From NCBI GenBank assembly GCA_013387215.1, contig WARW01000001.1:119301-183300 (forward strand): a stretch of DNA of 64,000 nt. Reading direction: 5' to 3'. Both the position numbers and the translations under genes were made by a program. The notes beneath the pieces were generated by a model that saw only the letters and a program-made list of their open reading frames with translations, searched no databases and had not been told where the DNA came from. Of the stretch, positions 21,524 to 46,186 are shown in pieces (within the stretch, counting starts at the first letter, position 1; every line of letters starts with the position of its first letter). The stretch comes from Patescibacteria group bacterium (GTDB lineage: Bacteria > Patescibacteriota > Microgenomatia > UBA12405).

Positions 21524-21599
21524 TCCCCTGTAGCTCAGTCGGTAGAGCGTCCGCCTGTTAAGCGGCAGGTCCTTGGTTCGAGTCCAAGCGGGGGAGCCA
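21524..21599 (+). tRNA. tRNA-Asn (anticodon GTT), CCA encoded
   Basis: TCCCCTG-TA-GCTC-AGTCGGTA-GAGC-G-TCCGC-CTGTTAA-GCGGC-AGGTC-CTTGG-TTCGAGT-CCAAG-CGGGGGA-G-CCA. Closely resembles canonical bacterial tRNA-Asn. Confidence 0.85.
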
Positions 21600-23177
21600 T
21601 ACTGGATTTGCAGGTCGCAAATCATCATTTTTCTCCATAATATCCGTATACTTTTGAGGTTCTAGCCAACCTTTATATTTTTCACTCCAATTTTGTTTAT
21701 CAGCCAATATTCCATATTCAGGTTTTAGCTTAACATCCACTAATTTATCAGTATTGAAGATGAGGTTCGCGCCAATAGTCATAAGAATCATTTGTTTATC
21801 AGCTCTAGAACCACTATTAAATTTGTATTGGCAAACTCTGGCAAATTCAATAGTATTTTCAACCTTGGTTCTCCAATCATCTAAGTCGTCAGTTGTACTA
21901 TCTAATTTGACCTTAATTTCATTTTTTTTAGCTTCAAGAATTTGTTTTTTCTCTTTGTAAGTTAGGTCATCAATAGTTTCATCCAGTTTCATGTCTAAAA
22001 GCTTATTCAATCGTCTTTCTATATTAGATAATTCTGTTTGTTGAGATTTAAGTTTTTCTTCTTTAAAACCAGATTCATCTTTATGAATGACAGAAAGCCA
22101 TTTGTTTGACCAATTAATGAAATCTTGGTCAGGAGTAAGTTTTATTAACAATGTGTCTAACTGTTTTAAAACATCTGCTTCGGTCAATGGTTTTGAATCA
22201 CACTTAATCTTTTTATTTTTCTTAGTGCAGTGGTAATAAGTGTAAGTAACAATTCGCCCAGTTCCTAAATAATGTTTAGTTTTTTGAGAAGCTGTTATTG
22301 CAGAACCGCATTTTTGACAACGAAATAACCCTGTTAAGTCAAAAGTATGGGTATGAGCAACTGGTTTACCAAATTTACCCAAAGCTTTCTGAACAATATC
22401 AAACTGTTCTCTGGTAATCATTGGTTCATGATGCCCATTAAACCAATTACCTGAACCTTGTGGATACTCAAATTCACCATAATAAAAAGGTTTATTAAGA
22501 ATATTGTAAAAAGTTGACCTTGAAAAAATTTGACCATGTTGGTTAGTTAATTTCCAAATCTCCGAAGCTTCTTTATAAACTTCAATTGCTTGTTTTCCTT
22601 TAATAACTTCCAAAAATAGTCTTTTAACCAAATCAAACCTTTCTTCGTCCTTAACAATTACTTTAAATCCTTTCTTTCTGTCTGGAGTATTCTTGTAACC
22701 CAACGGGGAAGATGATGGCATCCAGCCCATACCAGCTTTTGTACCCATTCCTCTTTTTGCATTTATTCCACGATTATCATTTTCTAATTTTGCCTGTCCA
22801 CATAAAATATTAAATAAAAATTTATCATTTGGATTGTTTCTAAAAACTTGGGTAGGAGTAATTATTTCGTCTAAAACATTTCTATCCATCATATAAATTA
22901 TTTGACCAGAATCTACTGAATTTCTGGATAGTCTGTCTGGATTCCATACAAGTATTTTTTTAACTTGTTGAGATTCCATATCTTTTAGTAATTGATTAAA
23001 AATTGGTCTTCCTGGCTTTTTGGCAGATTGTGATTCTTCATAATATGGAGTAACTAATTCAAGACCATCTCTTTTAGCTAATTTTTCTAAAGCTTCAATT
23101 TGAGAAGGGATAGAAAGAGCTTGTCTTTCTTCATCTTCTTGTGATTTTCTACAGTAAACAAAAACTTGGTTTTTCAT
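21558..23177 (-). CDS. large serine recombinase (resolvase/invertase N-terminal domain, recombinase and zinc-ribbon domains)
   Basis: N-terminus MKNQVFVYCRKSQEDEERQ...LSIPSQ (catalytic Ser region YxRxS), a long recombinase domain and a Cys-rich zinc ribbon (CQKCGS...YYHC). The last 14 codons (WLPRLDSNQGPAA) are encoded antisense to the tRNA-Asn 3' half; the stop codon lies in the anticodon loop. Start placed at the second Met. Confidence 0.8.
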   Translation of the reverse strand: MKNQVFVYCRKSQEDEERQALSIPSQIEALEKLAKRDGLELVTPYYEESQSAKKPGRPIFNQLLKDMESQQVKKILVWNPDRLSRNSVDSGQIIYMMDRNVLDEIITPTQVFRNNPNDKFLFNILCGQAKLENDNRGINAKRGMGTKAGMGWMPSSSPLGYKNTPDRKKGFKVIVKDEERFDLVKRLFLEVIKGKQAIEVYKEASEIWKLTNQHGQIFSRSTFYNILNKPFYYGEFEYPQGSGNWFNGHHEPMITREQFDIVQKALGKFGKPVAHTHTFDLTGLFRCQKCGSAITASQKTKHYLGTGRIVTYTYYHCTKKNKKIKCDSKPLTEADVLKQLDTLLIKLTPDQDFINWSNKWLSVIHKDESGFKEEKLKSQQTELSNIERRLNKLLDMKLDETIDDLTYKEKKQILEAKKNEIKVKLDSTTDDLDDWRTKVENTIEFARVCQYKFNSGSRADKQMILMTIGANLIFNTDKLVDVKLKPEYGILADKQNWSEKYKGWLEPQKYTDIMEKNDDLRPANPVWLPRLDSNQGPAA

Positions 23178-23459
23178 AAAATAAATTAAAAAATAAAAAT
23201 ACCCTCGCTGGTGCAACCAGAACTTATACAGCTCTGTCCAACGAGGGTATTTCTAAGTTGTATAAATTGTTCTGGTTGCATAATAATTATACTATTTTTG
23301 AATCATAAATTCACTATTTTTCTCCTAATAAACCAATAATATTAAATAGTTATTAAAGTAATAGTTACATTAATAAAATTAACCTTATAAGTAATAAATT
23401 ATTATTAATTTATTAAAGTAAAAGTTACTCTATAGTTAGAGTTACTATATACATAGTTA

Positions 23460-23798
23460 CTAGAAGGGTATTTCCTCTGGAATAATAATGTCTTCTATTG
23501 GTTCTTCGTTTAATTGCTTATTTTTGTAAGCTTCGTATATTTCTTTTTCCATTTTTCCCCAAGATGTTTCGTCTTCAACATAAACAATAGTTGGATATTT
23601 TCCATAAGCATTTCTTTGACTTGTTGGCTTAATGTTTATTTTTTCGTTTAATCTGCTATTCAAAATATCACTTTCCCAAATTTGAAAACCTTTTATTGTT
23701 ATCCATCCAAAACCTTCAGTTAGAAGGGTAATGTTGGCATTTGCTAATAATTTCCCCCTGTTTTGTATTTTTATATTTATTTTTATATTTTTGTCCAT
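23460..23798 (-). CDS. SpoVG-like protein (putative)
   Basis: INIKIQNRGKLLANANITLLTEGFGWITIKGFQIW follows the SpoVG pattern of an alternating beta-strand core with a conserved G-K-L-x-A; weak. Confidence 0.35.
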   Translation of the reverse strand: MDKNIKINIKIQNRGKLLANANITLLTEGFGWITIKGFQIWESDILNSRLNEKINIKPTSQRNAYGKYPTIVYVEDETSWGKMEKEIYEAYKNKQLNEEPIEDIIIPEEIPF

Positions 23799-23818
23799 AA
23801 ATCATTAAATAATTAACC

Positions 23819-24043
23819 TCAAATATCAAGAAAAATTTTCAATGCATAAATCAATTCAGGTTTTGTTTTATACTCTCCGCAATTGACCAACCCTTTTTCG
23901 TAAGTAACACGAACTTTATAAAGGCAATTTTGAAAATTATTAGCTTCAATGAATTTATTAATTCTTCTTATTTTTCTACTGGCAATACTTTTCACCACTT
24001 TTGAATTAGAAATTATTTTTATAGAAATATTAGGCTTGTTCAT
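23819..24043 (-). CDS. hypothetical protein
   Basis: ORF only. Confidence 0.25.
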   Translation of the reverse strand: MNKPNISIKIISNSKVVKSIASRKIRRINKFIEANNFQNCLYKVRVTYEKGLVNCGEYKTKPELIYALKIFLDI

Positions 24044-24473
24044 TTTTAGATGGGGTTTTACTAGTAATTAAGTACCTTAAATTTAAGAATGCTTCGGCTT
24101 TTATTTTTGCTTCGTTAAATTCCAACAGCACACCACACTTGTCTTTATAGATTTTTTGAAATTCAATTACTGCTTCTTCTGGCAAGTTCATAACATTTCA
24201 TGAATCCTTGCTTTTAGAGTTTTTGTTTGTGCAAAAAACTCAGAAGCATCAACTTGTAAATTTTTGTTCCAAAAGTTTGAAATCAATTCTCGTAGTTGGG
24301 GAGTATCATCAAAGCAAAATAAGCAGTTATTGTTAGTAGGGTCTTTTTCTATAGAAGTTATTGGTAGAAAAAGGGAGAGAGCTGATGCTAGAGATAATGA
24401 ATTTGTCTTGTATTTTTTCATTTAATGTAGAGTGTTTTAATTTCTCTACACTAATTCTCCCAAAGGGTACGGG

Positions 24474-25328: not shown

Positions 25329-25360
25329 TTATTATCTCTTATTTAAGCCAAAATATACAC

Positions 25361-25552: not shown

Positions 25553-25582
25553 AATATTTTTTGATTTATTTATAAAGTTCGT

Positions 25583-26163: not shown

Positions 26164-26385
26164 TTGATGGAAGACAGAAAAATTACCAAGAAAGATTTAC
26201 TTTTCGGAAAGAGGCTTCAGCGAGCAAGGAAAAGCGCTGGGTTTACACAGGAGAAATTGGCTGACAAAATTAGAATGAGCACTACATTTATTGGCTTAGT
26301 TGAGACGGGAAAAAGAAGACCAAGTATGAAGACATTACAAAAAATTGCTTCTGCTTTGAATGTAAACATTAGAGAACTGTTTTGA
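26164..26385 (+). CDS. XRE-family HTH transcriptional regulator
   Basis: Classic HTH_3: LRKSAGFTQEKLADKIRMSTTFIGLVETGKRRPSMKTLQKIASALNV. Confidence 0.7.
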   Translation: MMEDRKITKKDLLFGKRLQRARKSAGFTQEKLADKIRMSTTFIGLVETGKRRPSMKTLQKIASALNVNIRELF

Positions 26386-27478: not shown

Positions 27479-27985
27479 ATGAAATGCAATAAATGTAAAA
27501 AAAATAATCCAGAGGGTAGTAAATTCTGCTCATCCTGTGGTGCAAATTTGTCCGAAAAAACATCATTTGAACATCAAGAATTGATGGATAAAATTATAGA
27601 CCATCTGGAATTTATTGGATATGAAATTGATAAACCTATTGAATTAGAAGACGGAAAACATATGCAGGTTATTGCTATCAATAAAAACAGGTCAAACCTA
27701 ATAATCACCTTTAATGCCAGTGGTTTGGTTACATTTGTGTCTAATTATTCTATCAACCAGGATAAAGTAACCAAAAAGTGGCTAGATGCGTTAGAGTGTG
27801 TAAATAAGATGAACCTCGTCGCTTCAGTGTGTACTTATTGTTTTAATGAAAGTAAAGATGCGCTAGTCTGTTGTTCCTGGTATCCAAGTGAATATTCCAA
27901 GAAGACATTTTCTTTCTTTTTAGACATCTATGAGGCAGATATTAAAGCTAGATTTAATTCTAGTGGAATTATGGATTTTGCTTAA
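27479..27985 (+). CDS. zinc-ribbon protein with YbjN-like (putative sensory transduction regulator) domain
   Basis: N-terminal CNKCKKNNPEGSKFCSSCG zinc ribbon, then a ~130-aa alpha/beta domain whose pattern resembles YbjN/T3SS-chaperone-like folds; weak. Confidence 0.35.
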   Translation: MKCNKCKKNNPEGSKFCSSCGANLSEKTSFEHQELMDKIIDHLEFIGYEIDKPIELEDGKHMQVIAINKNRSNLIITFNASGLVTFVSNYSINQDKVTKKWLDALECVNKMNLVASVCTYCFNESKDALVCCSWYPSEYSKKTFSFFLDIYEADIKARFNSSGIMDFA

Positions 27986-28752: not shown

Positions 28753-29484
28753 ATGTTGTGCAAAAAATGTGGACAAAACAACGAAAATGATGGTAAGTTT
28801 TGTATTAAGTGTGGATTTGTATTAAAACCGAGTGGAAAAAAGAGAGTTGAAGATGTTCTCTTCATTCCACAAAAAGAATCTAAAAAACATAAAACGAATT
28901 GGTTTCTGATTATTTTTTCAGTCTTTGTCATAGGAATAGTTTTTATTGCCTTAGTTGCTGCAAGTGGAAACAATTCAACAACTAACAGTAATTCATCAAT
29001 TAATTCAGAAACAAAAAATGGTGAATGGCAACCATTTTCTTCTGCTGAACATGGATTTAGTATTGATTTTCCAGGGTATCCATCAACCGAAAGGGAGCCA
29101 AAGACTACATTGGAGAATGGTTATAGTTATTCTTCCACACAGTATTCATCTCAAGACAAAGATGGAGTTGATTATCTGGCATTAAGTGGAGATTATGATA
29201 TACCTCCAGAAGATTACGATAATATTACTGGACTAGAAGGAATGATTAATTATATGAATAAGCCAGGAGAGATAATAATAAGTGATACAAAACTGACAAC
29301 AATTAAGGGTTACGATGCGATTACTTTTTCCTTTAATAGTATTAAAGAAAAATACATCGGTAAAGGTATAGGGATAATTCGTGACGATTTACAATACATA
29401 AAATCATTTATTTTTATGGTTGGGTCACCAACGGGTAATATTCCAAATTACCAAAAGTTTATTAATTCATTGGAGTTTAAATAA
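28753..29484 (+). CDS. zinc-ribbon, single TM helix, extracytoplasmic domain protein
   Basis: CKKCGQNNENDGKFCIKCG zinc ribbon, one TM helix, then a Ser/Asn-rich linker and a ~170-aa outside domain. Confidence 0.45.
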   Translation: MLCKKCGQNNENDGKFCIKCGFVLKPSGKKRVEDVLFIPQKESKKHKTNWFLIIFSVFVIGIVFIALVAASGNNSTTNSNSSINSETKNGEWQPFSSAEHGFSIDFPGYPSTEREPKTTLENGYSYSSTQYSSQDKDGVDYLALSGDYDIPPEDYDNITGLEGMINYMNKPGEIIISDTKLTTIKGYDAITFSFNSIKEKYIGKGIGIIRDDLQYIKSFIFMVGSPTGNIPNYQKFINSLEFK

Positions 29485-30302
29485 TGTTTTGCAATAAATG
29501 TGGTAAAGAAATTAATCAAAATAGTAAATTTTGTAATTATTGTGGAAATAAAATTATTTTAAAAAAAGCTAATCAAAAATCTGAGATTGCGGAACAGACT
29601 CATGTTGAATCTGCTGAAGACTATATTTGGACTTGCGATTATTGTGGTAAGGAATTTGATTCTAAATCTGAATCGGATAGGCATGAAGAAACTTGTGAAA
29701 AAAATCCTAAAAATATTAAAGACGAATCAAAAAATATTTGTTCTAAGTGTGGAAGTGATAATAAAATTGAAGCAAAATTCTGCAAAAAATGTGGGAATGA
29801 AATGTTGGTAGAACAATATAATTATGCTGGTTTTTGGGTTAGATTAGGGGCATGGTTAATTGATTACGCTGGTGTTTTATTTTTTTCAGTAATTATTTAC
29901 ATTGTATTAGCGGTATTTGGATTTGAGTTAGGGGATATTGAGACTGGAGTAGACTATCTTCTTACATATGTTTATATGGTCTTATATTTCACATTTTTTA
30001 TCGCAACATGGTCAACTACTCCTGGTAAAAGAATTTATGGACTGAAAGTTGTTAATGAAGATGGAGGTAAAGTCAGTTGGTCAATGTCTTTTAAAAGAGC
30101 TTTATTGCAACCCCTTTCAACTTTTCTTTTTGGTGTTGGATATGCAGATATGAACAAAAACGGAAAAGAACAAGCTTGGCATGGTAGAAAAAGTCACACA
30201 ATTCTTACACAACAAGAAGGAGCTATTTATTTCTTTCCAATTGTATTATCAATACTAGGTTTTGTAATTTATGCTTGGGTGAGAAGTCTGTCATCAACAT
30301 AA
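29484..30302 (+). CDS. triple zinc-ribbon RDD-family membrane protein
   Basis: Three C-x2-C...C-x2-C ribbons (CNKCGK..CNYCG; CDYCGK..H..C; CSKCGS..CKKCG). An RDD-family TM domain follows (RLGAWLIDYAGVLFF...TPGKRIYGLKVV). Confidence 0.5.
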   Translation: MFCNKCGKEINQNSKFCNYCGNKIILKKANQKSEIAEQTHVESAEDYIWTCDYCGKEFDSKSESDRHEETCEKNPKNIKDESKNICSKCGSDNKIEAKFCKKCGNEMLVEQYNYAGFWVRLGAWLIDYAGVLFFSVIIYIVLAVFGFELGDIETGVDYLLTYVYMVLYFTFFIATWSTTPGKRIYGLKVVNEDGGKVSWSMSFKRALLQPLSTFLFGVGYADMNKNGKEQAWHGRKSHTILTQQEGAIYFFPIVLSILGFVIYAWVRSLSST

Positions 30303-35063: not shown

Positions 35064-35391
35064 TTAACTAAATAATTAATAATATAATCTAACGGTTATT
35101 TAGGACAACTTTTATCATTATTAATATTATTTTCTAATCCATTCTTGCTAAGACATTCTTTCGATTTATCTACATTCAATACTTGTATTTTCTTCTGGCT
35201 TTGCTGATATTCAATAGTAGCCATTGCTATTTCAAACCACTGGTTTACAGCTGTATCTAAGCTGCTTTCCGTTAAAGCAGGTAATTTTTTACCTATATCC
35301 ATAAAGACTCCTTACTCACATCCATAAGTGCGGATACTTATCAGGAGCCTGTGGATAGGCTTTGAACGAGAATTAATTAATAATTAATAAC

Positions 35392-35706
35392 TTACATAGT
35401 TATATTTTTTGCCTTATATAACTCATTTTTAAATCTATCAACGCTTTCTAATAGGTCGATAGGGTGAATCATTGGCGCTGTCCGGTTATAAAAGGCGTTA
35501 ATAGCCTTGATGACTATTGCTTCAGGTGAAAATTTAAAATAAATTATTCCGGCAATTTCTTCAGTTCCAAGATAATTCAATTCAGGTAATAAAAAAAGGA
35601 AAGGTATAAGGCGTTTGTCTTTTTCGAAATGTATTTTATAGTTTTGCTTATCCATAATAAATCCATAAATTAGGTGAATGGTAAATAATAAAAAAAACCG
35701 CGGCAT
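35392..35706 (-). CDS. hypothetical protein
   Basis: 104-aa ORF flanked by a 12-bp direct repeat CCTGTGGATAGG (35348-35359 and 35739-35750). Confidence 0.3.
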   Translation of the reverse strand: MPRFFLLFTIHLIYGFIMDKQNYKIHFEKDKRLIPFLFLLPELNYLGTEEIAGIIYFKFSPEAIVIKAINAFYNRTAPMIHPIDLLESVDRFKNELYKAKNITM

Positions 35707-35879
35707 TCACCTCGGTTTCACTTTCGAATAAGCTCTTCCCTGTGGATAGGGATTAAACCTATATAAACGATATCAAATGATATCTTTACTGTCAAACATT
35801 AGGAAAAGACACTTAATCACCCCTCTTTTACCCCCTTTATAGCACCTATAAAACACCTAAGTCTTACACGAATCAGAAA

Positions 35880-36212
35880 TTAGTTGTTATATTTCAAGTT
35901 AAAAGCATCATCCGACATGGACAAGTATATAATCCCTTCAATAAAGCTAACTAACCAAAGAATTACCAGTCCTATTCCAAATGTGAGTAAGCTAATTACT
36001 AAATAAATTATTCCGACTTTGCTTTTTCCTAAATAAAATTTGTGGATTCCTAAACCCCCTAAGAAAAAGGCAAATAAGGCAGCTCCTACTTTAGATCTAT
36101 TTTCTTTCTTTAAAGAAGGTTGTCTAACTCCACACTTAGGGCACACCTCTGCTTCTTCAAATAACTCATTTCCACACTTATAACAGAACTTTTTACTGTT
36201 ATTATCCACCAT
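35880..36212 (-). CDS. zinc-ribbon plus TM2-domain membrane protein
   Basis: CYKCGNELFEEAEVCPKCG zinc ribbon followed by the TM2 domain (GGLGIHKFYLGKSKVGIIYLV...). Confidence 0.5.
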   Translation of the reverse strand: MVDNNSKKFCYKCGNELFEEAEVCPKCGVRQPSLKKENRSKVGAALFAFFLGGLGIHKFYLGKSKVGIIYLVISLLTFGIGLVILWLVSFIEGIIYLSMSDDAFNLKYNN

Positions 36213-36375
36213 AACTGTATTATATATGATTTGTAATATTTCTCAACTTTAGTCTAAAAAGTAAGACTAATATTTATAAATAATTTGAACAGTAATTTCT
36301 GTAATTTTTAACCAAAAAGAACAAATCTCTTGTTTAAATTTTTGTAATAGTGAGTACAATATCAGTAAATCGTAT

Positions 36376-37818
36376 ATGGATCTAAGATTTTCAAAATATT
36401 TTAAATTAGAAAAAAAACAGCATGAGCTTGATTTTGTTGATGTACCTTTAAATACTGATATTCGACTATTTATTGACCCTTACACGCTCTCTATAAGAAG
36501 CGACGAATTTTCAATGCAATGTAGCAATATAGTTATAAATTTTTTTCAAAGAATAATTGATGATATTAAAGACGGTCGATTTGAAAGTGCAAAATATAAC
36601 TTGAATAGACTTAGAGAACCTAATGAAACACACCTTGGTTTATCAAATGAAAATCCAATAGGTAAAGGAGTAAGTGGTAAACAGTCAATCGATATTTTTG
36701 AAAAATTAAAAAATAGTAGAGCTACAAAAACTGGTTTTTTAAAAGATTTATCTGATTGTGAATTGGTAATACCAGGGATTAGTAGGGATAAAATTTCCGA
36801 CATAGTTACTAATATTATTAAGATAAAATTATTAGAATATACACAGGCACAGTGTAATACATATAATATTCCCACCATTCCCGTTTCTTCAGGAAAATAT
36901 TGGAATCCCCAAAAAGGTATATGGGAAGAAGAATATTTTAATTTGCCTGTATATAAAAATAAAAAAATTATTTTAGTTCCTAAAGCAATTGTTCGTTATA
37001 CCTTAGAATACAATCAAAAAAAATATTACAATGGTTTCGTTTTAGAGTTTCTGCAGGAAGAACATCTCAATGCCAATACAGCCTTAGTACAATTGTTAAA
37101 AAATGGTACAAGAAGGGTAACTAAAAAGGATTTAAAAAAAGATCCTCGTTATAAACCAACAAAACAATTTTTATATGAATTTTCTAACGAGCATCCAGAA
37201 GTATTCGAGAAATACACTGACTCTCTACCTGAAAATGTTCCTTCATTATCAAATGAACAAATAGAGGCTAAACAACAAATTAGTGAAGATTTCGATTATG
37301 ATGCTTTAATCGAAAATCTTAAAAAGATTCCTACTGGTAAAGAAACTGAAGACGATTACCACAACTTGATAATAGGTATCTTAGAAGTAATTTTTTATCC
37401 AAATTTATTTAGCCCAGAAAAGGAAGTTCGAATTCATAATGGTAGGAAAAGAATAGATATTACTTATCAAAATGCAGCTAAGGATGGATTTTTTGAATAC
37501 ATAATTAACCACGTACCTTGTCCCTTTATTATCGCTGAATGTAAAAACTATAGTGAAGATCCTCAAAACCCAGAACTCGATCAATTAAGCGGTAGGTTTT
37601 CACCAAGAAGAGGTAGATTCGGCTTTTTAGTTTGTAGAAAAGTTGAAAATAAGGATTTGATGGATCAAAGATGTAAAGATACCGCGTGTGATGATAGAGG
37701 TTACATAATGGTGTTAGATGATAATGACTTGATAACTCTTATTAATTTTAGAAAAAGAAATGATCAACAATCGATTGAAGATTTTTTAACTAAAAAATAT
37801 AAAAACTTAGTAATGTAA
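36376..37818 (+). CDS. protein with C-terminal PD-(D/E)xK nuclease domain (first gene of a three-gene operon)
   Basis: C-terminal RIDITYQN...PFIIAECKNY...GFLVCRK matches the D...ExK restriction-endonuclease-like core; N-terminal ~330 aa of unknown function. Confidence 0.4.
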   Translation: MDLRFSKYFKLEKKQHELDFVDVPLNTDIRLFIDPYTLSIRSDEFSMQCSNIVINFFQRIIDDIKDGRFESAKYNLNRLREPNETHLGLSNENPIGKGVSGKQSIDIFEKLKNSRATKTGFLKDLSDCELVIPGISRDKISDIVTNIIKIKLLEYTQAQCNTYNIPTIPVSSGKYWNPQKGIWEEEYFNLPVYKNKKIILVPKAIVRYTLEYNQKKYYNGFVLEFLQEEHLNANTALVQLLKNGTRRVTKKDLKKDPRYKPTKQFLYEFSNEHPEVFEKYTDSLPENVPSLSNEQIEAKQQISEDFDYDALIENLKKIPTGKETEDDYHNLIIGILEVIFYPNLFSPEKEVRIHNGRKRIDITYQNAAKDGFFEYIINHVPCPFIIAECKNYSEDPQNPELDQLSGRFSPRRGRFGFLVCRKVENKDLMDQRCKDTACDDRGYIMVLDDNDLITLINFRKRNDQQSIEDFLTKKYKNLVM

Positions 37819-37820
37819 AA

Positions 37821-38558
37821 ATGAAGAAGATACGAAGAAGTAGCTTAAGAAGCCATAAGATAAAAAACAAAGAATTGGAATCTATATTTTCAGGATTAAA
37901 AATGAGCCAAGTTTACTGGCATAAAGATTTGCTTCCAGAATTTTTCTGGATAGAAGCACTTGTTAATTATTATGGAGAAGAGAGAGCAAATCATTATTAC
38001 AACGAATTTTTAGATTCTATTGAAAAGATATTTATTAATAATTCAAATATATATATTGGTATAGTAAGTGATTTTGGAGATATACCAGAAAAATATAGAA
38101 ATAAAATTGTAGAAAATAATAAATTATTAATTGAAGATGTAATTTACAAACCATTTGCGAATATTATAAAAATTTATCCAAATATTCCAATGAAATGGTT
38201 ATTGCAAGGTTTTGACTTATCAAAGATCGATGAACAAGATGGAATAAAACAAGTTGTTGAAGCTATTAAAAGACTGTATCCTGCAAAGGATAATCATTGT
38301 GGTTTTTGTAGGGCAATTCCACTTAATAGATATTTTAAACATAAAAAAATATTTCTAACGTCAAATTTAGCAGAAACAATAAAAGCAGTTGAACAATATC
38401 CATTGGGAGATAGATACAGGGTTGAAACTTTAGCAAGAAATATAATTAACCACGATATCTTAAATAAAATTAACTCTTGTATGATCTCTGATAAGTTACT
38501 TTGGTCAAAAGATTTTTGGTGTACTAATTATAAATTGACAAAATGTGATGAACAATGA
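37821..38558 (+). CDS. hypothetical protein (operon gene 2)
   Basis: Starts 3 nt after the upstream stop; no recognisable motif. Confidence 0.35.
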   Translation: MKKIRRSSLRSHKIKNKELESIFSGLKMSQVYWHKDLLPEFFWIEALVNYYGEERANHYYNEFLDSIEKIFINNSNIYIGIVSDFGDIPEKYRNKIVENNKLLIEDVIYKPFANIIKIYPNIPMKWLLQGFDLSKIDEQDGIKQVVEAIKRLYPAKDNHCGFCRAIPLNRYFKHKKIFLTSNLAETIKAVEQYPLGDRYRVETLARNIINHDILNKINSCMISDKLLWSKDFWCTNYKLTKCDEQ

Positions 38559-39355
38559 TTTCAAAAAAACAAAGAAGCTCTATAAATAAACTCAGACAAG
38601 CAACTAATCGCGGAAGAATAATGATTGATGATGTATTAGAGATCATCAGGAACCAAGTAGACAATCAACAAGTAAACATATATGAACCAGAAGAAAACGA
38701 AGTGATAAATGGATTATTTTTTAGAGTTCTACGTTTTTATCACTCTTATGTAATAAGTTTTCACTTTTGGGCAGAAGATATGCATAGAATAATTACAAGA
38801 ACCATTATTGAATCATTTATTTATCTTTCATATTTAATAAATACCAATAAAAAAGAAATCTACCTGGAATTTATTAAATATGGTATTGGTCAAGAAAAGT
38901 TATATAAACTCCAATTAGCAAAATTAATTGAAGAGAAAAAAATACAACCGTCAAGTGAAATAATAGATTATATAAATTCTGATAGTGATGAGGAAATTTG
39001 GGATGAATTAATATCAATAAAATTAAAAAATTTTGAGGACTTGAGAAAACTGTCAAATAAAATAAACGAAAGCGAACTTTACAGTATTAAATATCAACCC
39101 TATTCTGATGTCATACACGGACATTGGATGGCTTTAAAAAAATATTATCTAAAGAAATGTTCTAACCCAATGCATAGATTTCATTACATACCAAACTTTA
39201 TATTGCCAAACATTAATCCAATAGGTTTAGTTGAAATTACTAATCTCTTTTATCAATGCTATTTATTATGGATTAAGAAAAATAATTTTGAAAATAAAAT
39301 TGAGAAAGTAATTGATTCTTATCTAAATGATTTAAATCAAATATTCTCAATATAA
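38555..39355 (+). CDS. hypothetical protein (operon gene 3)
   Basis: ATGA overlap with the gene 2 stop; no recognisable motif. Confidence 0.35.
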   Translation: MISKKQRSSINKLRQATNRGRIMIDDVLEIIRNQVDNQQVNIYEPEENEVINGLFFRVLRFYHSYVISFHFWAEDMHRIITRTIIESFIYLSYLINTNKKEIYLEFIKYGIGQEKLYKLQLAKLIEEKKIQPSSEIIDYINSDSDEEIWDELISIKLKNFEDLRKLSNKINESELYSIKYQPYSDVIHGHWMALKKYYLKKCSNPMHRFHYIPNFILPNINPIGLVEITNLFYQCYLLWIKKNNFENKIEKVIDSYLNDLNQIFSI

Positions 39356-39461
39356 AATTAAATATCTACACTGAGTGTAAGACCAGTCGAACCAAAATTA
39401 TTTATAACATCAATTATTTTTTTAATCGATTCATTTATATTAAGACTTGGACTGGGGAGCA

Positions 39462-39650
39462 TTAGTTTAATAATGAGTCAAAATCATTTCTTTTAGTCTT
39501 ATAATTACTTTCATCAAAACTAAATTCTTTTAATATTTCACAGCCTTTGGTTTGGTAATATTTCTTTAGTCTCTCAACCTCAGCTGGGAATGATATTCCA
39601 GCCTCTTTTTGTTCGTCTGTACCAACCCGCGCAATTATTATTGATTTCAT
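39462..39650 (-). pseudogene. serine recombinase/resolvase N-terminal fragment with catalytic Ser replaced by Gly
   Basis: MKSIIIARVGTDEQ...LKKYYQTKGCEILKEFSFDESNYKTKRNDFDSLL aligns to the resolvase N-terminus (ARVSTdeQ ... G.sG....R.gl..LL) but stops after 62 aa; S to G at the catalytic position. Confidence 0.55.
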
Positions 39651-40865
39651 TTATTTCCCGGATTTAATGCGGTTGTCATCTTTACAAAGCATTTGACAGT
39701 TGGCATAATCTGTTTTACCGCCTAATCTCCAAGGTTTTATATGATCAGCTTCCATTTCACCATATTCAAAATGTGCATTACCACAAACAGCATTTTTAGC
39801 GACACAAATACCTTTTTGTTCATTGTATTTTTTAATCTTAGTTTTCTCGTCAAATGTACGTAAACTCAAAGTTCGTTCATCACCCGTTAAGACATACTCA
39901 TAGATGCCTCTTTTATTCTCTACTTCATCATCGTCAATCAATTCTATAATCCTCTTTTCCAAAGTTTCAGAATTTAAACTCTCATCTTTATGTTGGTTAT
40001 AAAACCTTCCCCATTCCAAACCTTTCATTAACTGTACGCGAACACTCGTTTGGTTAGGGAAAACTTTATTCGCCCAATCAACTACATTGCGATAGTAACC
40101 ACGAATCTCGTCAGCGTTCTCGGTGTTCTGGTGATCAGCCATATACTCCTCAATACCCTTATGACTATTGTCGTAATCATGACTAATCCAACGTAAGGCC
40201 GTTTCTAAAATTTTTTGCCTGTTTGCTTCGCCAGTAACAAGATTTTTACCAAGTTCAATTGCTGGCCCGCCGGTTTTACTAAAAAATCTTTTTGCATCCA
40301 TTAGCCATTTACCGGTATAGTTTGCATTGCGAATTTCTTGGGGTGTTTGTTCCAGACCAGCAATATTTATAACATTAAACCATGTTATTTTTTCATTTGG
40401 TGTGCCTTCACAAATATAAATTGACAATTCATAGTCTAAAAACTCATTTTGCTGATCGCGAGTTAAATTGCTAAACTTTTTAGGAGCACCTTCCCAGTTA
40501 ATTGAAAACTCACCGCTTAAATACTGACCTTGCTCACCAATTTCTGCCTTGGTAATATCGCCCACATACTGACAGATACTTATAGTGCGTTGTTGACCAT
40601 CTATTACTTCGTATTGATCATTGCCGATTTTTGCCCAGTACATCACATTGAGGGGAAAGCCATGTCGGACAGTTTCTATTACCAAATTTCGTTGTTTCTC
40701 ACCGTATACAAAGTTGCGCTGAAAAGCCGGACGAATGTTTAACTTACCACCGTAACCAACAACTGGTCCTTCTTGCTCACTTTCGTCGCAGTAACCTGCA
40801 ACTAAATCACGAACAGTTATTTTTGGTGCTCCATCCTCACGACCGGAGAGTTTAATTTGCATCAT
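39651..40865 (-). CDS. DUF262 (ParB-like) plus DUF1524 (His-Me finger/HNH) nuclease, GmrSD-like
   Basis: N-terminal VIDGQQRTISI (DGQQR motif of DUF262/GmrS). C-terminal ADHIKPWRLGGKTDYANCQMLCKDDNRIK (HNH-like DUF1524). Confidence 0.65.
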   Translation of the reverse strand: MMQIKLSGREDGAPKITVRDLVAGYCDESEQEGPVVGYGGKLNIRPAFQRNFVYGEKQRNLVIETVRHGFPLNVMYWAKIGNDQYEVIDGQQRTISICQYVGDITKAEIGEQGQYLSGEFSINWEGAPKKFSNLTRDQQNEFLDYELSIYICEGTPNEKITWFNVINIAGLEQTPQEIRNANYTGKWLMDAKRFFSKTGGPAIELGKNLVTGEANRQKILETALRWISHDYDNSHKGIEEYMADHQNTENADEIRGYYRNVVDWANKVFPNQTSVRVQLMKGLEWGRFYNQHKDESLNSETLEKRIIELIDDDEVENKRGIYEYVLTGDERTLSLRTFDEKTKIKKYNEQKGICVAKNAVCGNAHFEYGEMEADHIKPWRLGGKTDYANCQMLCKDDNRIKSGK

Positions 40866-41923
40866 TATGTTATCTCCTTTCTTTTAATAAAAATACGTGC
40901 ATAAATAAGTTTATATTCATCGCCAACTTTTATAGAGCCGCGCCTGTTTAAGTCGCCATATTTAGGGCTATCGGCAGATGTGTAAACTCTTGTTTTCAAA
41001 CCTGAGTTATTATCTCTATCAGTTATCCCTAAAATCTCAAATTGATCAGGGTTGTACTTATCCAGAAAAGTTATTGGCACACCCATTGGCTCAAAATAAT
41101 CTTCGGGAATATCTTTAACCTTGTCAATTTCTATTGCGTCGTAGTTATCATATTTTGGATATTGTTCTGGTAAATAGCGTCTATATAAATCTAATGGTTC
41201 GTGGCGTTTACTGACATCTAAATTTGTATACCAACCTTTATTTCCAAATTTTTTCAGTGTTCCGTTTGGTTGCATAAACTCTTTTACTCTTTTATAACCG
41301 CGCCAAATTTTATTATTTTTGATCAACGGAAAAACTTCTTTTAAAGTAATCCAGTTATCATCCCCAATTATTAAAAATTCTTTTTTGTATTCAAATAATT
41401 GCGCAATGTATTCACGCGCCAAACTAAAAGGAGGATTAGTACACACAATGTCTGCTTCTTTTAATAATTCAACACACTCGGCGCTTCTAAAATCGCCATT
41501 ACCTTTGAGGGGTGTCGCAACATTTTTATTATTTTGCAACAGCCACTGTACATCGGAAATATCCACTGCACCATCATTATTGCTGTCGGGCACCTGATTT
41601 ATTTCTATTTTGAGTGGTGTTTTATTTTTTCTCGATGATACTATCTCACGCGCACCAGCAATGTCACCGATTGATAATTGCGTGAAAGCTATAGGTGATG
41701 GAATGTAACTCGTGGCAATCAGTTTCCTAAGTCCTAATGCATTAAAACTGCTAGCAAAATATTTAAAGAAATTGCTCTCAAACGGATCATCGCAATTCAG
41801 AAGAACTATTTTATTTCTAAACTGCATTGTATAGTATCTTAGCTCGTTTTCTATATCGGCAAGTTGAGTGTAGAACTCATCGTTTCTTACCTCTCTGGCC
41901 TTAATTAGATTTGTGTTAGTCAT
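40865..41923 (-). CDS. DNA methyltransferase (amino-methyltransferase, NPPF motif IV)
   Basis: Motif IV DIVCTNPPFSL and N-terminal SAM-binding-like region (LLNCDDPFESNFF). Stop overlaps the start of the DUF262 gene (ATGA). Confidence 0.6.
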   Translation of the reverse strand: MTNTNLIKAREVRNDEFYTQLADIENELRYYTMQFRNKIVLLNCDDPFESNFFKYFASSFNALGLRKLIATSYIPSPIAFTQLSIGDIAGAREIVSSRKNKTPLKIEINQVPDSNNDGAVDISDVQWLLQNNKNVATPLKGNGDFRSAECVELLKEADIVCTNPPFSLAREYIAQLFEYKKEFLIIGDDNWITLKEVFPLIKNNKIWRGYKRVKEFMQPNGTLKKFGNKGWYTNLDVSKRHEPLDLYRRYLPEQYPKYDNYDAIEIDKVKDIPEDYFEPMGVPITFLDKYNPDQFEILGITDRDNNSGLKTRVYTSADSPKYGDLNRRGSIKVGDEYKLIYARIFIKRKEIT

Positions 41924-42235
41924 AAATATTTCAATTCATTAATATTTTGATCAAGGTCTTCATTTTTAACCCAACACTCTTGTAAATATAAAAATTTATC
42001 TTCTTATAAATGTAATATATATCACAATAAATAACATATCAACAACCAATACTTCTCGTCATAACTATTAATTTGTGATTTACCAGCCAAACAATTTTCT
42101 CTAGGCGATTAAGTTACAAAAAAAGATTTTAAAGGGGACATCGTTAATTAAACGATAAAGTACTAGATCGAAATTACTCCGCTAAGATAGCTAGTAAAAA
42201 TTAATCAAAATATTAAAAATGTTACACTTAAATCA

Positions 42236-42823
42236 ATGAACCAAGTAGCAAATGAAATCGCATTAGGAATTTTAAAAGCTATTCCTTGGTGGCTTTGGGT
42301 TATTATCATAATTTTTGCCATTCTTGGACCAGAAGAGAATATCCGTCGCCGTCGTCATTCATATAAAACAAAAGGTATTTTAGAAATCTTTGTTGATTGG
42401 ATTTGGTATCAATTAGCTGAAAAGAAAAAAATTGAGAAATCAGGTATTAATAATATTGACCGTATGAGCGGTTATCAATTTGAAAAATATTTAATCAATC
42501 TTTTTATTCGTCTTGGCTACAAAGTTCGTCATGTTGGAAGTAATTACTATCAGCATCATGGTGATTTTGGGGCCGACTTAATTGTTGAAAAAGATGGTGT
42601 TAAAACCGCCGTTCGAGCCAAAAACTATAATAATCTAGTGGGTATTGAAGCTGTTCGTCGAGTTCTTGGTGCTATTAACTATTATCAATGCCAAAGGGGA
42701 ATTGTTGTTACTAATAATTTCTTTTCTTTCGACGCTAGAACTCAAGCTAGTGTGAGTAATGTTGAATTGTGGGATCGAAATAATCTTATTGATGTTATTT
42801 CTAAATTAAACACCAATAAATAA
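42236..42823 (+). CDS. membrane-anchored Mrr-cat (restriction endonuclease-like) domain protein
   Basis: N-terminal TM helix plus RRRRH; Mrr_cat-like core (QFEKYLINLFIRLGYKVRHVG...GDFGADLIVEKDGVKTAVRAKNY). Paralog of 45063..45740. Confidence 0.55.
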   Translation: MNQVANEIALGILKAIPWWLWVIIIIFAILGPEENIRRRRHSYKTKGILEIFVDWIWYQLAEKKKIEKSGINNIDRMSGYQFEKYLINLFIRLGYKVRHVGSNYYQHHGDFGADLIVEKDGVKTAVRAKNYNNLVGIEAVRRVLGAINYYQCQRGIVVTNNFFSFDARTQASVSNVELWDRNNLIDVISKLNTNK

Positions 42824-42852
42824 GTGGGGATATTTATTCTATCGAGTAGAAA

Positions 42853-44496
42853 TCAATAACTACTTTTTATATAGTAGTAACCAATCAATCCTATGATAAT
42901 TATCCAAAACAAATAAATACTTATAGCTCCCGCAATAATTAAAACAATACCAATCAAAACTATATTCCAATATTTTTTTTGATTTGTTTCATATTTTTGC
43001 CTTGTTTCTCCAAAATAATCCAAAATATATTGCCACCTATCCGTTGCTTTTATATATCCAAGCATCTTTTGTAACTCTGACTCTTCAATCTGTTTGATTT
43101 GTATTTTTTCTTCGTTGGTTAGTTTCTTCTTACTGCTTTGTAAAGATTTTTCATTAATATACCTCACTAAACCAGCATCACCTTCTCCAAAAAATAAGAC
43201 TGCTTTTGATTTTTTACCGTCTCTTCCAATTCTTCCCATTTGCTGGTAATAATCTTCAATGTTTTGAGGAATACACCAATGTATAGCAATTCTAATATCA
43301 GGAATATTTACACCCATTCCAAAAGCCGAGGTACAAATTAATACTTTCCATTTTGATGGAACAGTTCCTTTGTATTCATCTTGAATTCTTATTTTGTCTT
43401 CTCTGTTTTGTTTGCCATAAAAGAATTCGCAGTTAACATCTTTTCTTACGAGTTCCCTCCAAACCAAACTTCCTATTTTGATTGTTGGCACAAATATAAT
43501 GATTCTTTCATCGTTGTATTCACTAATTATATTAATAATTAAATTTATTTTTTCTTCATCAACTTGTTCCTTTTGACCGTCAAATATTTTTACATATAAA
43601 TCAATTTCTGGTCTGTAAAATCCGGTCACAAAAACAGCAGGATGAACCAGTCCTAATGAAGTAATAATATTTTGTTGTACACGTTTTGAAGCTGAAGCAG
43701 TTAAAGCTATGGTTTTGGGATACCCCAACACCTTTCTTAACTCTTTAAGTTGTGCATAAGAAGGTCTAAAACTTCGGCCCCATTTATCAATACAATGTGC
43801 TTCATCAATAGCTAATAAATCAAATTCATTTTGTAGAAGGGGATGATTAAGTTTAATTTTATTGTCCTGGTATTTATCAAAAAATTGTTCTGGTGCCACA
43901 TAAATAAAACGAAACAATTTTTGAGCAAACATACTTAATCTATTTTCTTTTTCTTCTTGTTCCAAGTCACTATTAATAAATGTTGCAGGAATTCTTTTTT
44001 CCCATAAATTTTCCACCTGATCTTTCATTAATGCTTTCAGCGGTGTAATTACCATTGTTTGATTTTCCAAAGCGATGCCTGGTAATTGAAAGCAAACTGA
44101 TTTTCCTGAACCTGTTGGCATAACAACTAAAACATCTCTACCATTAAGCACAGCTTTAATAATTTCTTGTTGATGTAATCTAAATGTTGTTTTGTGGGTA
44201 AGAAGATAAAGTAATTTTTTTAAATCTTTCTGTTCGGGAAGTTGTAATACATTTCTAAAAAGATTGTTTAATCTAAAAACGATATCTGAAAAATATTTTG
44301 TTTGATATTCGATGTGTTTGCTTGAGTGGCATGTTCGACACAATGTTACAAGATTTGACGGATTATTTTCACCACCCCATTTTTCTGGGATTACATGATG
44401 AATATTTAAATTCTCTTTACTGCCACATTCGATGCACTGATGATGGTCTCTATTTAAAACTAAATTTCTTATTTCGTCCGATAAATATATTTTCAT
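42853..44496 (-). CDS. HNH endonuclease fused to RecQ-family DEAH helicase, with C-terminal TM helix
   Basis: N-terminal HNH (HHQCIECGS...NIHHVIP...NLVTLCRTCH). Helicase motifs I VVMPTGSGKS, II DEAH, V TSAFGMGVNIPDIR, VI QQMGRIGRDG. Hydrophobic C-terminal 35 aa. Confidence 0.7.
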   Translation of the reverse strand: MKIYLSDEIRNLVLNRDHHQCIECGSKENLNIHHVIPEKWGGENNPSNLVTLCRTCHSSKHIEYQTKYFSDIVFRLNNLFRNVLQLPEQKDLKKLLYLLTHKTTFRLHQQEIIKAVLNGRDVLVVMPTGSGKSVCFQLPGIALENQTMVITPLKALMKDQVENLWEKRIPATFINSDLEQEEKENRLSMFAQKLFRFIYVAPEQFFDKYQDNKIKLNHPLLQNEFDLLAIDEAHCIDKWGRSFRPSYAQLKELRKVLGYPKTIALTASASKRVQQNIITSLGLVHPAVFVTGFYRPEIDLYVKIFDGQKEQVDEEKINLIINIISEYNDERIIIFVPTIKIGSLVWRELVRKDVNCEFFYGKQNREDKIRIQDEYKGTVPSKWKVLICTSAFGMGVNIPDIRIAIHWCIPQNIEDYYQQMGRIGRDGKKSKAVLFFGEGDAGLVRYINEKSLQSSKKKLTNEEKIQIKQIEESELQKMLGYIKATDRWQYILDYFGETRQKYETNQKKYWNIVLIGIVLIIAGAISIYLFWIIIIGLIGYYYIKSSY

Positions 44497-44628
44497 CTAT
44501 AGATTATTTTTACACTTGTTTATAAAAGTAATAAAGTAAACAATCGTAAATGAAAAACAAAACCACTTTGACAATTGATTAAACTTTGTGTTCATTTTTC
44601 ATTCATTTTCTCATTATATAATTTCGTC

Positions 44629-45042
44629 ATGAAAAACATTGTAAAAATCGGCTACATTTTATTTTTGTTTTTAGTTCTGCCAATTTTATTTATAAAACCT
44701 ATACAAGCTAAAAGTGGATGTTGCTCACATCACGGAGGAGTTTGTGGTTGCGACACAAATATTGGTAGCCAGGTTTGTTGCGATGGCTCTTATAGTCCAA
44801 CTTGTGGCTGTACAATCGTTAAAAAACCAACACCTACACCTATTAAAGTTGTTAAAACCAATCCTCTTGTTCAAAACAAAACAATTAAAACTATGAAAAT
44901 TACCATACCTCAAGTAAAGAAAAGCGGTACAGGTATTTGTCATCAAAAAGGAAGTACTTATTATAACCAAACTCTTAAATTCACTTCTTATAATTCTCTT
45001 CAAGAATGTTTAAAATCTGGTGGGAGATTACCAAAAAGATAA
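44629..45042 (+). CDS. secreted cysteine-rich small protein
   Basis: Signal peptide/TM, then SGCCSHHGGVCGCDTNIGSQVCCDGSYSPTCGC (10 Cys in 35 aa). Start set at the second Met (MKNIVKIGY). Confidence 0.35.
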   Translation: MKNIVKIGYILFLFLVLPILFIKPIQAKSGCCSHHGGVCGCDTNIGSQVCCDGSYSPTCGCTIVKKPTPTPIKVVKTNPLVQNKTIKTMKITIPQVKKSGTGICHQKGSTYYNQTLKFTSYNSLQECLKSGGRLPKR

Positions 45043-45062
45043 TTTGTAATATACTTAATTAA

Positions 45063-45740
45063 ATGACACAAACAGTTGGTATGGGTGACATAATTTGGCA
45101 AATAGTTAAAGGAATTCCTTGGTGGTGTTGGATAATTATACTAATAAGTGCTGTTGCAAGCCCGACTACTAGAAGAAGATATAAAAGACGTAGGTATTAT
45201 AGTAATTACAATAAATCTCTATTCGATGAAATAACTGATTCTATGGTTAATTTTATATTGAACTGTTTCAAAAGAAATTTTTCAGTAAAAAGACAAACTT
45301 TTTCGCAAACATACGCAACTAATTCCACTCAACAATCTACTATGAACCAAGAATCAAGTATCTGGGAAATTGATCAAATGACTGGTAGAGAATTTGAAAA
45401 ATATTTAGAAAAATTATTTATTAAACTAGGTTACAAAGTAAATAGGGTTGGAACGTGTTGGTATGACCATAGAGGGGATTTTGGTGCCGATTTGATTGTT
45501 GAAAAAGATGAAATTAAAACTGCAATTCAGGCTAAAAATTATAAAAATAATAATTTAGTAGGAATTAATTCTGTAAGAGAAGTTATCGGTGGTCTTAGTC
45601 ATTATAATTGTCAAAAAGCTGCTGTTATAACAAACAGTTATTTTACTAATGATGCTAAAGTTCAAGCAGGGGACAGTAATGTGAAATTACTTAATAGAGA
45701 TGATTTAATTAAACTCATTTCACGAACTGAAATAAAATAA
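45063..45740 (+). CDS. membrane-anchored Mrr-cat domain protein (paralog)
   Basis: Same architecture as 42236..42823 (TM, RRRYKRRR, Mrr_cat core REFEKYLEKLFIKLGYKVNRVG...GDFGADLIVEKDEIKTAIQAKNY); ~60% identical over the C-terminal domain. Confidence 0.55.
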   Translation: MTQTVGMGDIIWQIVKGIPWWCWIIILISAVASPTTRRRYKRRRYYSNYNKSLFDEITDSMVNFILNCFKRNFSVKRQTFSQTYATNSTQQSTMNQESSIWEIDQMTGREFEKYLEKLFIKLGYKVNRVGTCWYDHRGDFGADLIVEKDEIKTAIQAKNYKNNNLVGINSVREVIGGLSHYNCQKAAVITNSYFTNDAKVQAGDSNVKLLNRDDLIKLISRTEIK

Positions 45741-45741
45741 A

Positions 45742-46173
45742 TTGAGCTTAGACAATATGTCCCGCATTTACTCAAACAACGATCCAATTGAAATTCCTTT
45801 TCCTACCGATAAATTCCAAAAATATTTATCTCTTCTTAAAATAAACGAAAAAGATTTAAATTTAATTAATATTGAATTAATTTTTGCCTTAAGTTTCCTT
45901 GATTTTAAAACTGGTAAAAATTCTTTAGATGAATTTTCCGAAATTTCTAATCATCTTTTAAGCCTCTTAGATATCGTAACCAAAACAACTAATGATTTTG
46001 GAAAGGCTCTTGAATCAGCTGCAGAACTAAATTTTTATATCCGCAATATTGAAGATTCTAATGATAATTCAGTTGCAAATTTTATGACCACAATTGAAAA
46101 TTATTTTCAAAAACTTAGACCCGGATTATTAGACCAAGCCAAAAAAAATAAAGTTCTAAAACAGTCCACTTAG
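45742..46173 (+). CDS. hypothetical protein
   Basis: 143-aa ORF immediately after the Mrr-cat paralog. Confidence 0.3.
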   Translation: MSLDNMSRIYSNNDPIEIPFPTDKFQKYLSLLKINEKDLNLINIELIFALSFLDFKTGKNSLDEFSEISNHLLSLLDIVTKTTNDFGKALESAAELNFYIRNIEDSNDNSVANFMTTIENYFQKLRPGLLDQAKKNKVLKQST

Positions 46174-46186
46174 CCAGCACTCTCAT

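Follow-up and report, generated by a model that had tools for sequence, protein, structure and literature searches.

Serine integrases are described as 'not known for targeting tRNA genes', a use that 'has not been reported previously', with 14 of 297 predicted cases (Mageeney et al. 2020; PMC7192596). The stretch of DNA analysed here, referred to as the window, comprises 64,000 nucleotides (nt) of contig WARW01000001.1 from a Patescibacteria group bacterium. Downstream of rpoD, the window carries a tRNA-Asn gene and a series of islands with genes for large serine recombinases (LSR). Very probably, at least three small integrative islands lie here head to tail in an array, each inserted by its own LSR at the extreme 3' end of tRNA-Asn, with the recombinase reading frame crossing the junction. 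From the comparison of sequences we infer that the islands are mobile.

The islands resemble the systems of the large serine integrases (Listeria A118/LI, phiC31, Bxb1, SPbeta SprA/YokA) in the architecture of the protein, with Resolvase and Recombinase domains and a zinc ribbon with a long coiled coil, in a very short junction identity (7-8 bp here) and in the position of the integrase gene (int) at the element end. In several relatives a motif sits 5 bp farther out on the arm of the element-type attachment site (attP) than on that of the host-type site (attB), and the window's own arm is ambiguous in this respect. An offset of 5 bp between the zinc-ribbon motifs of attP and attB is described for a Listeria integrase (Rutherford et al. 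2013; PMC3783163). The islands differ from these systems in their targets, which are tRNA 3' ends of at least 10 isotypes, in a frame that crosses the crossover site and in an extension of ~65 residues after the zinc ribbon/coiled coil.

The Mx8 IntP/IntX and SSV-type integrases likewise have attP inside the int frame, and integration alters (Mx8) or splits (SSV) the protein. Mx8 also targets the 3' end of a tRNA gene. Unlike these tyrosine recombinases, the enzymes of the window are serine recombinases, the exchange is confined to the last 12-33 codons, and an antisense-tRNA tail is gained on integration. The islands resemble Mx8 and SSV in gene layout and are not members of their group. According to passages of the Islander paper, the Mx8 and SSV integrases 'extend across attP' (PMC4383910; PMC5861418), and one such passage cites the altered C-terminus of Mx8 IntP from Tojo et al. 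1996 (PMC4383910).

Classical Islander-type tRNA islands share with the array the restored 3' target of the tRNA, the int gene beside the tRNA, tandem accretion and a defence-rich cargo. Unlike them, the array lacks both a tyrosine integrase and a displaced tRNA fragment of 15-50 nt; its sole repeat measures 7-8 nt. The recombinase of phiRSM, a filamentous Ralstonia phage, targets the 3' end of tRNA-Ser. Unlike the enzymes of the window, it is small and resolvase-like, without the Recombinase and zinc-ribbon domains. Like them, it belongs to the serine family and works as a site-specific integrase (cited in PMC7192596). No account of serine integrases at tRNA genes in Patescibacteria was found in the literature covered, which is incomplete, such that absence is not proof. 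The splitting of int by integration is known for tyrosine integrases (Mx8, SSV), and no report of it was located for serine integrases. The class of mechanism is a familiar one, unlike the target, the split reading frame and the breadth of the clade.

The features of the array are given below by position in the window, with the strand in brackets. Related sequences carry numbers preceded by L.

20170-21255: rpoD; tRNA-Asn begins 270 nt later, and dnaG is also upstream
21524-21599 (+): intact tRNA-Asn(GTT), the attachment target (ARAGORN; Rfam RF00005, 67.2 bits)
21558-23174 (-): int1, LSR gene (Pfam), with a likely ATG start in a frame open to a TTG at 23216
21591-21597 (+): junction core 1, GGGGAGC, covering the 3' strand of the acceptor stem, the discriminator and C74; left junction of element 1, placed by homology breaks and the 8-bp repeat in L250
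21591-33552: element 1, 11,955 bp core to core
33507-33545 (-): far-end attachment arm (P arm) of element 1, 93% identical in L247/L248 and 90% in L250
33507-35063 (-): int2, intact LSR gene (Pfam), its product ~35% identical to Int1
33546-33552 (+): junction core 2, GGGGAGC, boundary of elements 1 and 2
33546-39460: element 2, 5.9 kb, with int2, a TM2/zinc-ribbon protein, a PDC-M36A-like protein (36376-37818) and a DitA-like/DUF5677 pair (37821-39355)
33563-33571: TTAATATAA, inverted-repeat partner of 39435-39443
39358-39453 (-): far-end arm of element 2, which encodes SPSLNINESIKKIIDVINNFGSTGLTLSVDI and a stop from the L-P codons of the core and holds TTATATTAA at 39435-39443
39454-39460 (+): junction core 3, GGGGAGC, boundary of elements 2 and 3
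39462-39650 (-): int3 remnant, 62 N-terminal codons matching the Resolvase N-terminus
39651-46173: element 3 remnant, with defence cargo (Pfam, PADLOC)

Judged by their domains, Int1 and Int2 are bona fide large serine recombinases. Int1 matches the families Resolvase (PF00239), Recombinase (PF07508) and Zn_ribbon_recom (PF13408) at 1.3e-23, 3e-10 and 3e-9, respectively, and Int2 matches them at 3.7e-29, 7e-15 and 1.7e-6. The catalytic serine, Ser12, is invariant across a 40-sequence alignment. Residues 4-472 of Int1 align with the SPbeta integrase YokA and residues 215-446 with the C-terminal domain of the A118 integrase. Recombination of attP with attB is the activity predicted for both proteins. 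The open reading frames (ORF) scanned between 21.5 and 46.2 kb gave no match to Phage_integrase, the tyrosine integrase family, and Pfam and PHROGs revealed no recombination directionality factor in the small ORF.

A first-pass annotation of the window had placed an LSR gene directly after rpoD and tRNA-Asn, with its last 14 codons antisense to the tRNA and a TAA stop inside the anticodon loop. The ORF, ARAGORN and Rfam agree on this arrangement. The C-terminus of Int1, WLPRLDSNQGPAA followed by the stop, is read antisense from the CCA end to the anticodon loop, with the TGG codon (Trp) complementary to the CCA end and the stop at 21558-21560. The last 10 codons and the stop (21558-21590) are host tRNA DNA read antisense, which gives the tail RLDSNQGPAA. 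In the AlphaFold model of Int1, long helices occupy residues 351-455 and the per-residue confidence (pLDDT) is below 50 at residues 524-539; the tRNA-encoded tail is probably unstructured. Int2 ends in LLPVLDSIRTAVCGF and a stop. The earlier proposal that the integrase C-terminus depends on the attachment site is borne out by Int1, Int2 and the tails found across the family.

The truncated, catalytically dead resolvase announced in the same annotation is also present. The int3 stub of 62 residues has a Gly in place of the catalytic Ser (IARVGTDEQ) and matches Resolvase at E 2.3e-4 with 21.7 bits, slightly below the Pfam cut-off of 23.3 bits. An internal deletion of ~1.4 kb is implied. The deletion ends within ~9 nt of core 3 (window 39454-39470), which hints at a recombinase-mediated and not a random event.

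The three LSR frames share one further feature. The heptamer GGGGAGC occurs three times in the 64 kb (starting at 21591, 33546 and 39454), always on the + strand and each time abutting the 3' end of a recombinase frame. The count itself is ordinary, as shuffled sequences hold 2.0 copies on average and 35 of 100 reach three; it is the placement of the copies, not their number, that is notable. At the left junction of element 1, relatives from Logan SRR8996944 (L081; 81-88% nucleotide identity) and from a JGI metagenome (L242; 74-80%) leave the window at 21592 and 21590, respectively, inside GGGGAGCCA. Both share the 3' end of int with the window, and neither junction adjoins a tRNA. At the right junction, L247/L248 match positions 33508-33552 at 93% and diverge straight after GGGGAGC, continuing into a T-run where the window has the 3' end of int2. 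The relative L250 holds a complete single insertion of 12.0 kb with an Int2-type integrase, flanked by an 8-bp direct repeat, GGGGAGCC, only.

The shared core thus measures 7-8 bp and homology ends there, as in serine integrases, which use a short core between otherwise dissimilar attachment sites. These comparisons place the recombination junction within the core GGGGAGC(C), not in the anticodon loop or the T loop; the crossover dinucleotide would lie inside the core. Given the homology breaks and the 8-bp flank of L250, the element exchanges no more than a few terminal bases of the tRNA, which stays intact. By the breaks against L081 and L242 the final ~8 nt of tRNA-Asn (GGGAGCCA) derive from element 1, and both ARAGORN and Rfam report a complete target tRNA after insertion. 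In L250 the tRNA-Asn gene bears a group I intron in the anticodon loop (2426-2737; Rfam Intron_gpI, 91.7 bits) and is missed by ARAGORN. The integrase frame passes through the 3' exon into the intron and ends in ...DSNHGPIAYKNPKVS; the residues AYK in the tails of homologues probably mark such intron-bearing tRNA-Asn genes.

When the frame is continued from the core's L-P codons, the far arm of element 1 encodes VLDSIRTAVCGF and a stop, and it serves in the array as the tail of Int2. With L-P included, the peptide is LPVLDSIRTAVCGF in both the window and L247, again followed by a stop, and the frame encodes LP(V/A)LDSIRTAVCG(F/Y). All four differences between the window and L247 are silent, including the change of the stop from TAA to TAG. 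Against L250, five of the seven differing codons are silent and the other two are conservative replacements. The far arm of L250, which encodes LPALDSIRTAVCGY and a stop, is 90% identical to window 33523-33552, with homology ending at the core. Since the arm recurs in relatives from three other samples and its homology ends at the core, it is element 1's own arm and not a displaced host copy. The pattern of substitution indicates that it is maintained, not decaying. L247/L248 hold two copies of the far arm 284 nt apart (4383-4420 and 4695-4739). The outer copy shares 93% identity with the window. The inner one, which encodes MLDSIITVVCGY and a stop, has diverged and its core is degenerate (…CATGAGCG); an element that formerly resided there may have left it behind.

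Besides int1, element 1 carries genes for a DUF5659 protein, a 284-residue ORF, a helix-turn-helix (HTH) regulator (26164-26385), a Schlafen/AlbA_2 protein and ORF of 241, 282 and 152 residues. Its cargo at 26.4-30.3 kb encodes membrane, zinc-ribbon and M48 peptidase proteins. The element is 81-88% identical to L081/L248 by blastn, where the central cargo is a ResIII helicase and an N6_N4 methyltransferase. Phage structural, packaging and lysis genes were found in none of the backbone ORF with Pfam and PHROGs, which returned only the HTH regulator and families of unknown function. Three adjacent cargo genes share paralogous zinc-ribbon N-termini (MxCxKCG...; 27479-27541, 28753-28815 and 29484-29546). 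Several of the zinc-ribbon cargo genes encode membrane proteins, and one neighbour encodes the M48 peptidase.

The two arms of element 2 contain a perfect 9-bp inverted repeat, TTATATTAA/TTAATATAA, each copy lying 10 nt from its own core. Position by position the arms match at 16 of 30 sites, including these 9 of 9, and the probability of such a placement is ~4e-4 (against a background of 277 9-nt pairs in 6 kb). The peptide of the far arm, LPSPSLNINESIKKIID..., resembles the tail of the homologue P0013 (LPVPSLNKTHNFQSIID) and homologue tails of the LPSPxLI(ITL) class; the score against P0013 is 43, versus 29.8 +/- 4.0 for shuffled peptides. Element 3 is a remnant that holds a type II restriction enzyme (GmrSD_N-HNH), an EcoRI-like methyltransferase, two Mrr-like nucleases and an HNH-DpdF/RecQ-like helicase. 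The genes of the Mrr-like nucleases (42236-42823 and 45063-45740) are paralogues with 70% identity over 197 nt; they encode N-terminal membrane segments and lie on either side of the helicase gene. The pair GmrSD_N-HNH and EcoRI-like methyltransferase (window 39651-41923) is also cargo of a serine-integrase element in L245 (1485-3873), a 462-kb contig whose integrase, P0075, is labelled Woesebacteria by one source. These elements appear to exchange defence cassettes.

The family of these recombinases is large. Int1 has at least 2,361 and Int2 at least 975 database matches at E <= 0.001, and nearly all matches with a source name come from Patescibacteria. Among the 68 metagenome loci with a resolved ORF end, 38 have the 3' end of an antisense tRNA in the final 160 nt of the ORF and no locus has one in sense, where chance alone would give ~0.4. 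The 38 tRNAs belong to 10 isotypes: Asn (13), Gln (11), Tyr (3), Leu (3), Ser (2), Glu (2), and Met, Val, Gly and Ala (1 each). The overlap of ORF and tRNA ranges from 10 to 151 nt, and the register is fixed: the N codon of the motif NPxWL stands 9 nt before the tRNA end where the CCA is encoded and 11 nt before it where it is not. Conservation of the protein stops at ...NPxWL(P), and 3-50 further residues are encoded beyond the junction. The tails fall into tRNA-antisense peptides (RVDSNHGPIA, RQGSNLRHPP or GWDSNPRP, for example), tails with a stop within two codons, and non-tRNA tails of the type L..L(D/E)x(I/V)R(T/N) or the long WLPxPxLIITLxDxxYMxxLKEKLxEIK. At least 55 of the best 120 Int1 homologues have a tRNA-antisense tail, and the Int2 family is alike.

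In relatives, TTCGAAC, the T-loop heptamer in antisense, begins at nt 27 in each of the 16 tRNA junctions; in seven of the 12 non-tRNA junctions its start is at nt 32 and hence 5 nt further out, which agrees with the attB/attP offset described for the Listeria integrase. Distant members of the family stand at the ends of predicted proviruses of 17-60 kb in IMG/VR, beside tRNA-Gly or tRNA-His. Comparable arrays are present in L081, L245, L102 and L161, and their neighbouring elements differ from array to array. A phage-like region in L243/L244 (7864-11620; Rad52, PDDEXK, RuvC, S24 repressor, SAVED) carries two adjacent serine integrase genes, the first ending in a tRNA-like fragment (…RGGWDSNL…) where no tRNA gene was detected, and the second having a long ...IITILEDFEYMASLKEQL... 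tail.

The region downstream of rpoD is variable among the relatives identified by RpoD (L001-L005). In L002, whose RpoD is 90% identical, rpoD is followed by tRNA-Asn (11767-11841) with no recombinase within 9.9 kb, that is, by an unoccupied site; the contig rejoins the window only at 55181-55481. At the core position its tRNA-Asn reads GGGCGAGC, and the core sequence may decide whether a site is occupied. The closest relative, L001 (RpoD 92%), has no tRNA within 10 kb after rpoD. L001 and L002 have a 184-residue gene beside rpoD that lacks a homologue in the window.

A mechanism can be proposed from these features. In the circular element the attachment site would span the 3' end of int, such that the last codons of int form one arm, and the other arm of attP would be a short 'exon' with the native tail and a stop. 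Recombination in GGGGAGC(C) would then fuse int to the tRNA and send this exon to the far end of the island. Integration would thereby split int, leaving its last 12-33 codons 6-12 kb away at the other end of the island, and the excised circle would regain a tail from the element's own far-end arm. The predicted junction of the element 1 circle is ...CAGCAGTCCTGATTGAATCTAGGACGGGGAGCCATACTGGATTTGCAGGTCGC..., and that predicted after loss of element 1, with the tRNA fused to int2, is ...GAGTCCAAGCGGGGGAGCAAGTTGCTTG.... The tail of an integrase beside the tRNA is the antisense acceptor and T-arm, and within the array it is the far arm of the neighbour; consequently, the last residues vary with the junction partner. 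Elements adjacent to the tRNA would be the youngest, as each newcomer would use the tRNA-side junction and push the older ones outward. The outer elements would lose their integrase, as Int3 suggests, and persist as defence-gene cargo.

In related elements the zinc-ribbon domain of the integrase may read the T loop: a centre at G71-A72 would put this loop at half-site positions 11-19. For the window's own arm the T-loop offset is a lead only. The simplest reading of the tRNA-encoded tail, given its predicted disorder and its unconserved length, is a tolerated appendage. It is speculative that the switch of tails, or convergent tRNA transcription into int, tunes the activity or expression of the integrase by integration state. 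A fuller version of this idea seems doubtful to us. It holds that integration and excision are carried out by two isoforms, an episomal one with the conserved C-terminal peptide xLDSIRTAVCG(F/Y) or, in other lineages, the 30-40 residue helix-like tail of the long class, and an integrated one with the disordered antisense-tRNA tail. Their swap, perhaps combined with convergent tRNA transcription, would act as a switch of directionality or expression. The universally conserved T loop and the acceptor end would be recognised, which would make natural landing sites of the tRNA genes of almost any organism.

Three other explanations of the region were weighed against the array of islands. The first-pass annotation had proposed that each element carries a tRNA 3' half and crosses over in or near the anticodon loop, 33513-33550 and 39440-39460 being displaced halves that decay. 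A weak in-register likeness (L-P-x-L-D-S; GATTGAATC vs GTTCGAGTC), a T-arm-like hairpin at 33526-33545 and a 17/18-nt repeat of the tRNA end in the distant relative L103 speak for such halves. The proposal is nevertheless very improbable, since homology breaks at the core on both sides of element 1, L250 is flanked by 8 bp only, and the arm at 33.5 kb is 90-93% conserved with mostly silent changes, even where tRNA-Asn differs (L250). Moreover, the similarity outside the core is not significant. When the tRNA 3' half was aligned with the downstream sites (repeat search, Smith-Waterman against random windows, blastn-short, Rfam), only the 7-nt GGGGAGC was common to them; for 33513-33550 the local alignment outside the core gave p ~0.17, with no match by blastn-short and none in Rfam at E <= 1. 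Only ~8 nt are borne by the element, and the idea that a newcomer brings the tRNA half while the older half decays had to be given up. The second LSR announced ~12 kb further on exists as the intact int2, without the supposed overlap with a tRNA copy. Likewise, serial integration is retained as a stack of recombinase-led islands at one tRNA, with decay growing with distance (Int1 and Int2 intact, Int3 a stub), and the displacement of tRNA halves is dropped from it. A crossover in the T loop, considered from the L103 repeat and an inverted repeat centred there, was rejected for the window by the homology breaks and L250.

A single composite island of ~25 kb, moving as a unit with several serine recombinase genes like some conjugative elements or SCC-type cassettes, would agree with the common orientation of the three recombinase genes and with the failure to find a terminal junction of the array. 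On the other hand, element 1 occurs alone with the same two ends and other neighbours (L081/L248, L247), a separate core and pair of arms mark each internal boundary, Int3 is dead and the neighbouring elements vary between arrays, all of which makes one unit improbable. The recombinases could also be resolvases or invertases unrelated to insertion, their adjacency to the tRNA and to GGGGAGC being a coincidence or an effect of gene calling; three GGGGAGC sites are not unusual as a count, and recombination is deduced here from sequences. This is extremely improbable in view of the full three-domain serine integrase architecture of both proteins, the excess of antisense tRNAs at the ORF ends (38 of 68, none in sense), the fixed register of the reading frame to the tRNA end and the coincidence of the homology ends with the cores.

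Several observations weigh against an array of independently inserted islands, or against parts of the account given for it. Serine integrases are not normally expected to target a site of the attL type, as the formation of arrays would require. No terminal junction was found at the right end of the array among GGGGAGC/GGAGC sites, inverted-repeat partners of the int3-side arm, arm-like DNA and arm-like peptides in six frames, and the extension of the islands to 46180 in the first-pass annotation is not demonstrable. The comparison with genomes lacking the insert, suggested there, yielded the unoccupied tRNA-Asn of L002, which is a relative only, and no empty site from the same species. An exact-pattern scan of IMG/VR for the circle, or attP junction, of element 1 gave no match. 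The attP reconstructed for element 1 has weak inverted-repeat symmetry (gapped and position-locked scores are not significant), and the window's own far arm is ambiguous for the 5-nt offset, its best TTCGAAC-like match being unshifted (5 of 7). The conservation of the far arm runs ~20 nt past the stop codon, and the DNA, not the peptide, may be the object of some of the constraint. Finally, L103, a 10.4-kb element with an integrase 34% identical, is flanked by the repeat of the tRNA-Asn 3' end mentioned above (1176-1193 and 11569-11586); the junction geometry may differ between subfamilies and not be uniform. L242 was also considered as an excised circle and was rejected, for it has no terminal repeat.

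If the array of islands is correctly described, it bears on several questions. Large DNA is inserted mainly with serine integrases, enzymes thought to avoid tRNA genes, whereas this clade appears to target many isotypes with a core of 7-8 bp. Should the T loop and the acceptor end be read, the landing sites would be pre-existing and highly conserved, and the family would offer a natural system for studying retargeting between tRNAs. The split int layout predicts different integrase proteins in the integrated and excised states and would carry the principle of Mx8 and SSV to the other recombinase superfamily. It would also account for many odd C-termini of recombinases in databases (DSNH, DSNQ, GSNLRP and similar). 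For the very small genomes of the Candidate Phyla Radiation, insertion at tRNA genes may be a major route for the build-up of defence islands.

The host genome is of low GC content (~35%) and belongs to the Patescibacteria (Candidate Phyla Radiation). Metagenome-assembled genomes of Candidatus Shapirobacteria are the closest by RpoD (84-92% identity), and by this marker the host is a Shapirobacteria-like Patescibacteria bacterium. Over 22-50 kb of the window the GC content dips from ~0.35 to ~0.30. A further feature lies just past the tRNA:

21605-21623 (+): terminator-like hairpin GATTTGC-AGGTC-GCAAATC, then a T-run, 6 nt past the tRNA end and within the int1 coding sequence (codons DLRPANP)

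This hairpin, with a 7-bp stem and a 5-nt loop, could stop tRNA transcripts running antisense into int1. The stem is preserved in L081, L082 and L242 (the loop differs in L242) and disrupted in L083. The int1-side arm is unusually conserved as DNA: 36 nt are identical in L082, whose integrase is 56% identical, and third positions agree at 9 of 12 in the arm versus 19 of 48 upstream.

Elsewhere in the window, genes for tRNA-Ile(TAT) and for two tRNA-Met are clustered on the - strand (9324-9736), in synteny with L002 and L003. A secreted protein of 710 residues (49866-51998) has an internal duplication and long Pro/Thr-rich linkers, and coincides with a local GC spike of 0.43.

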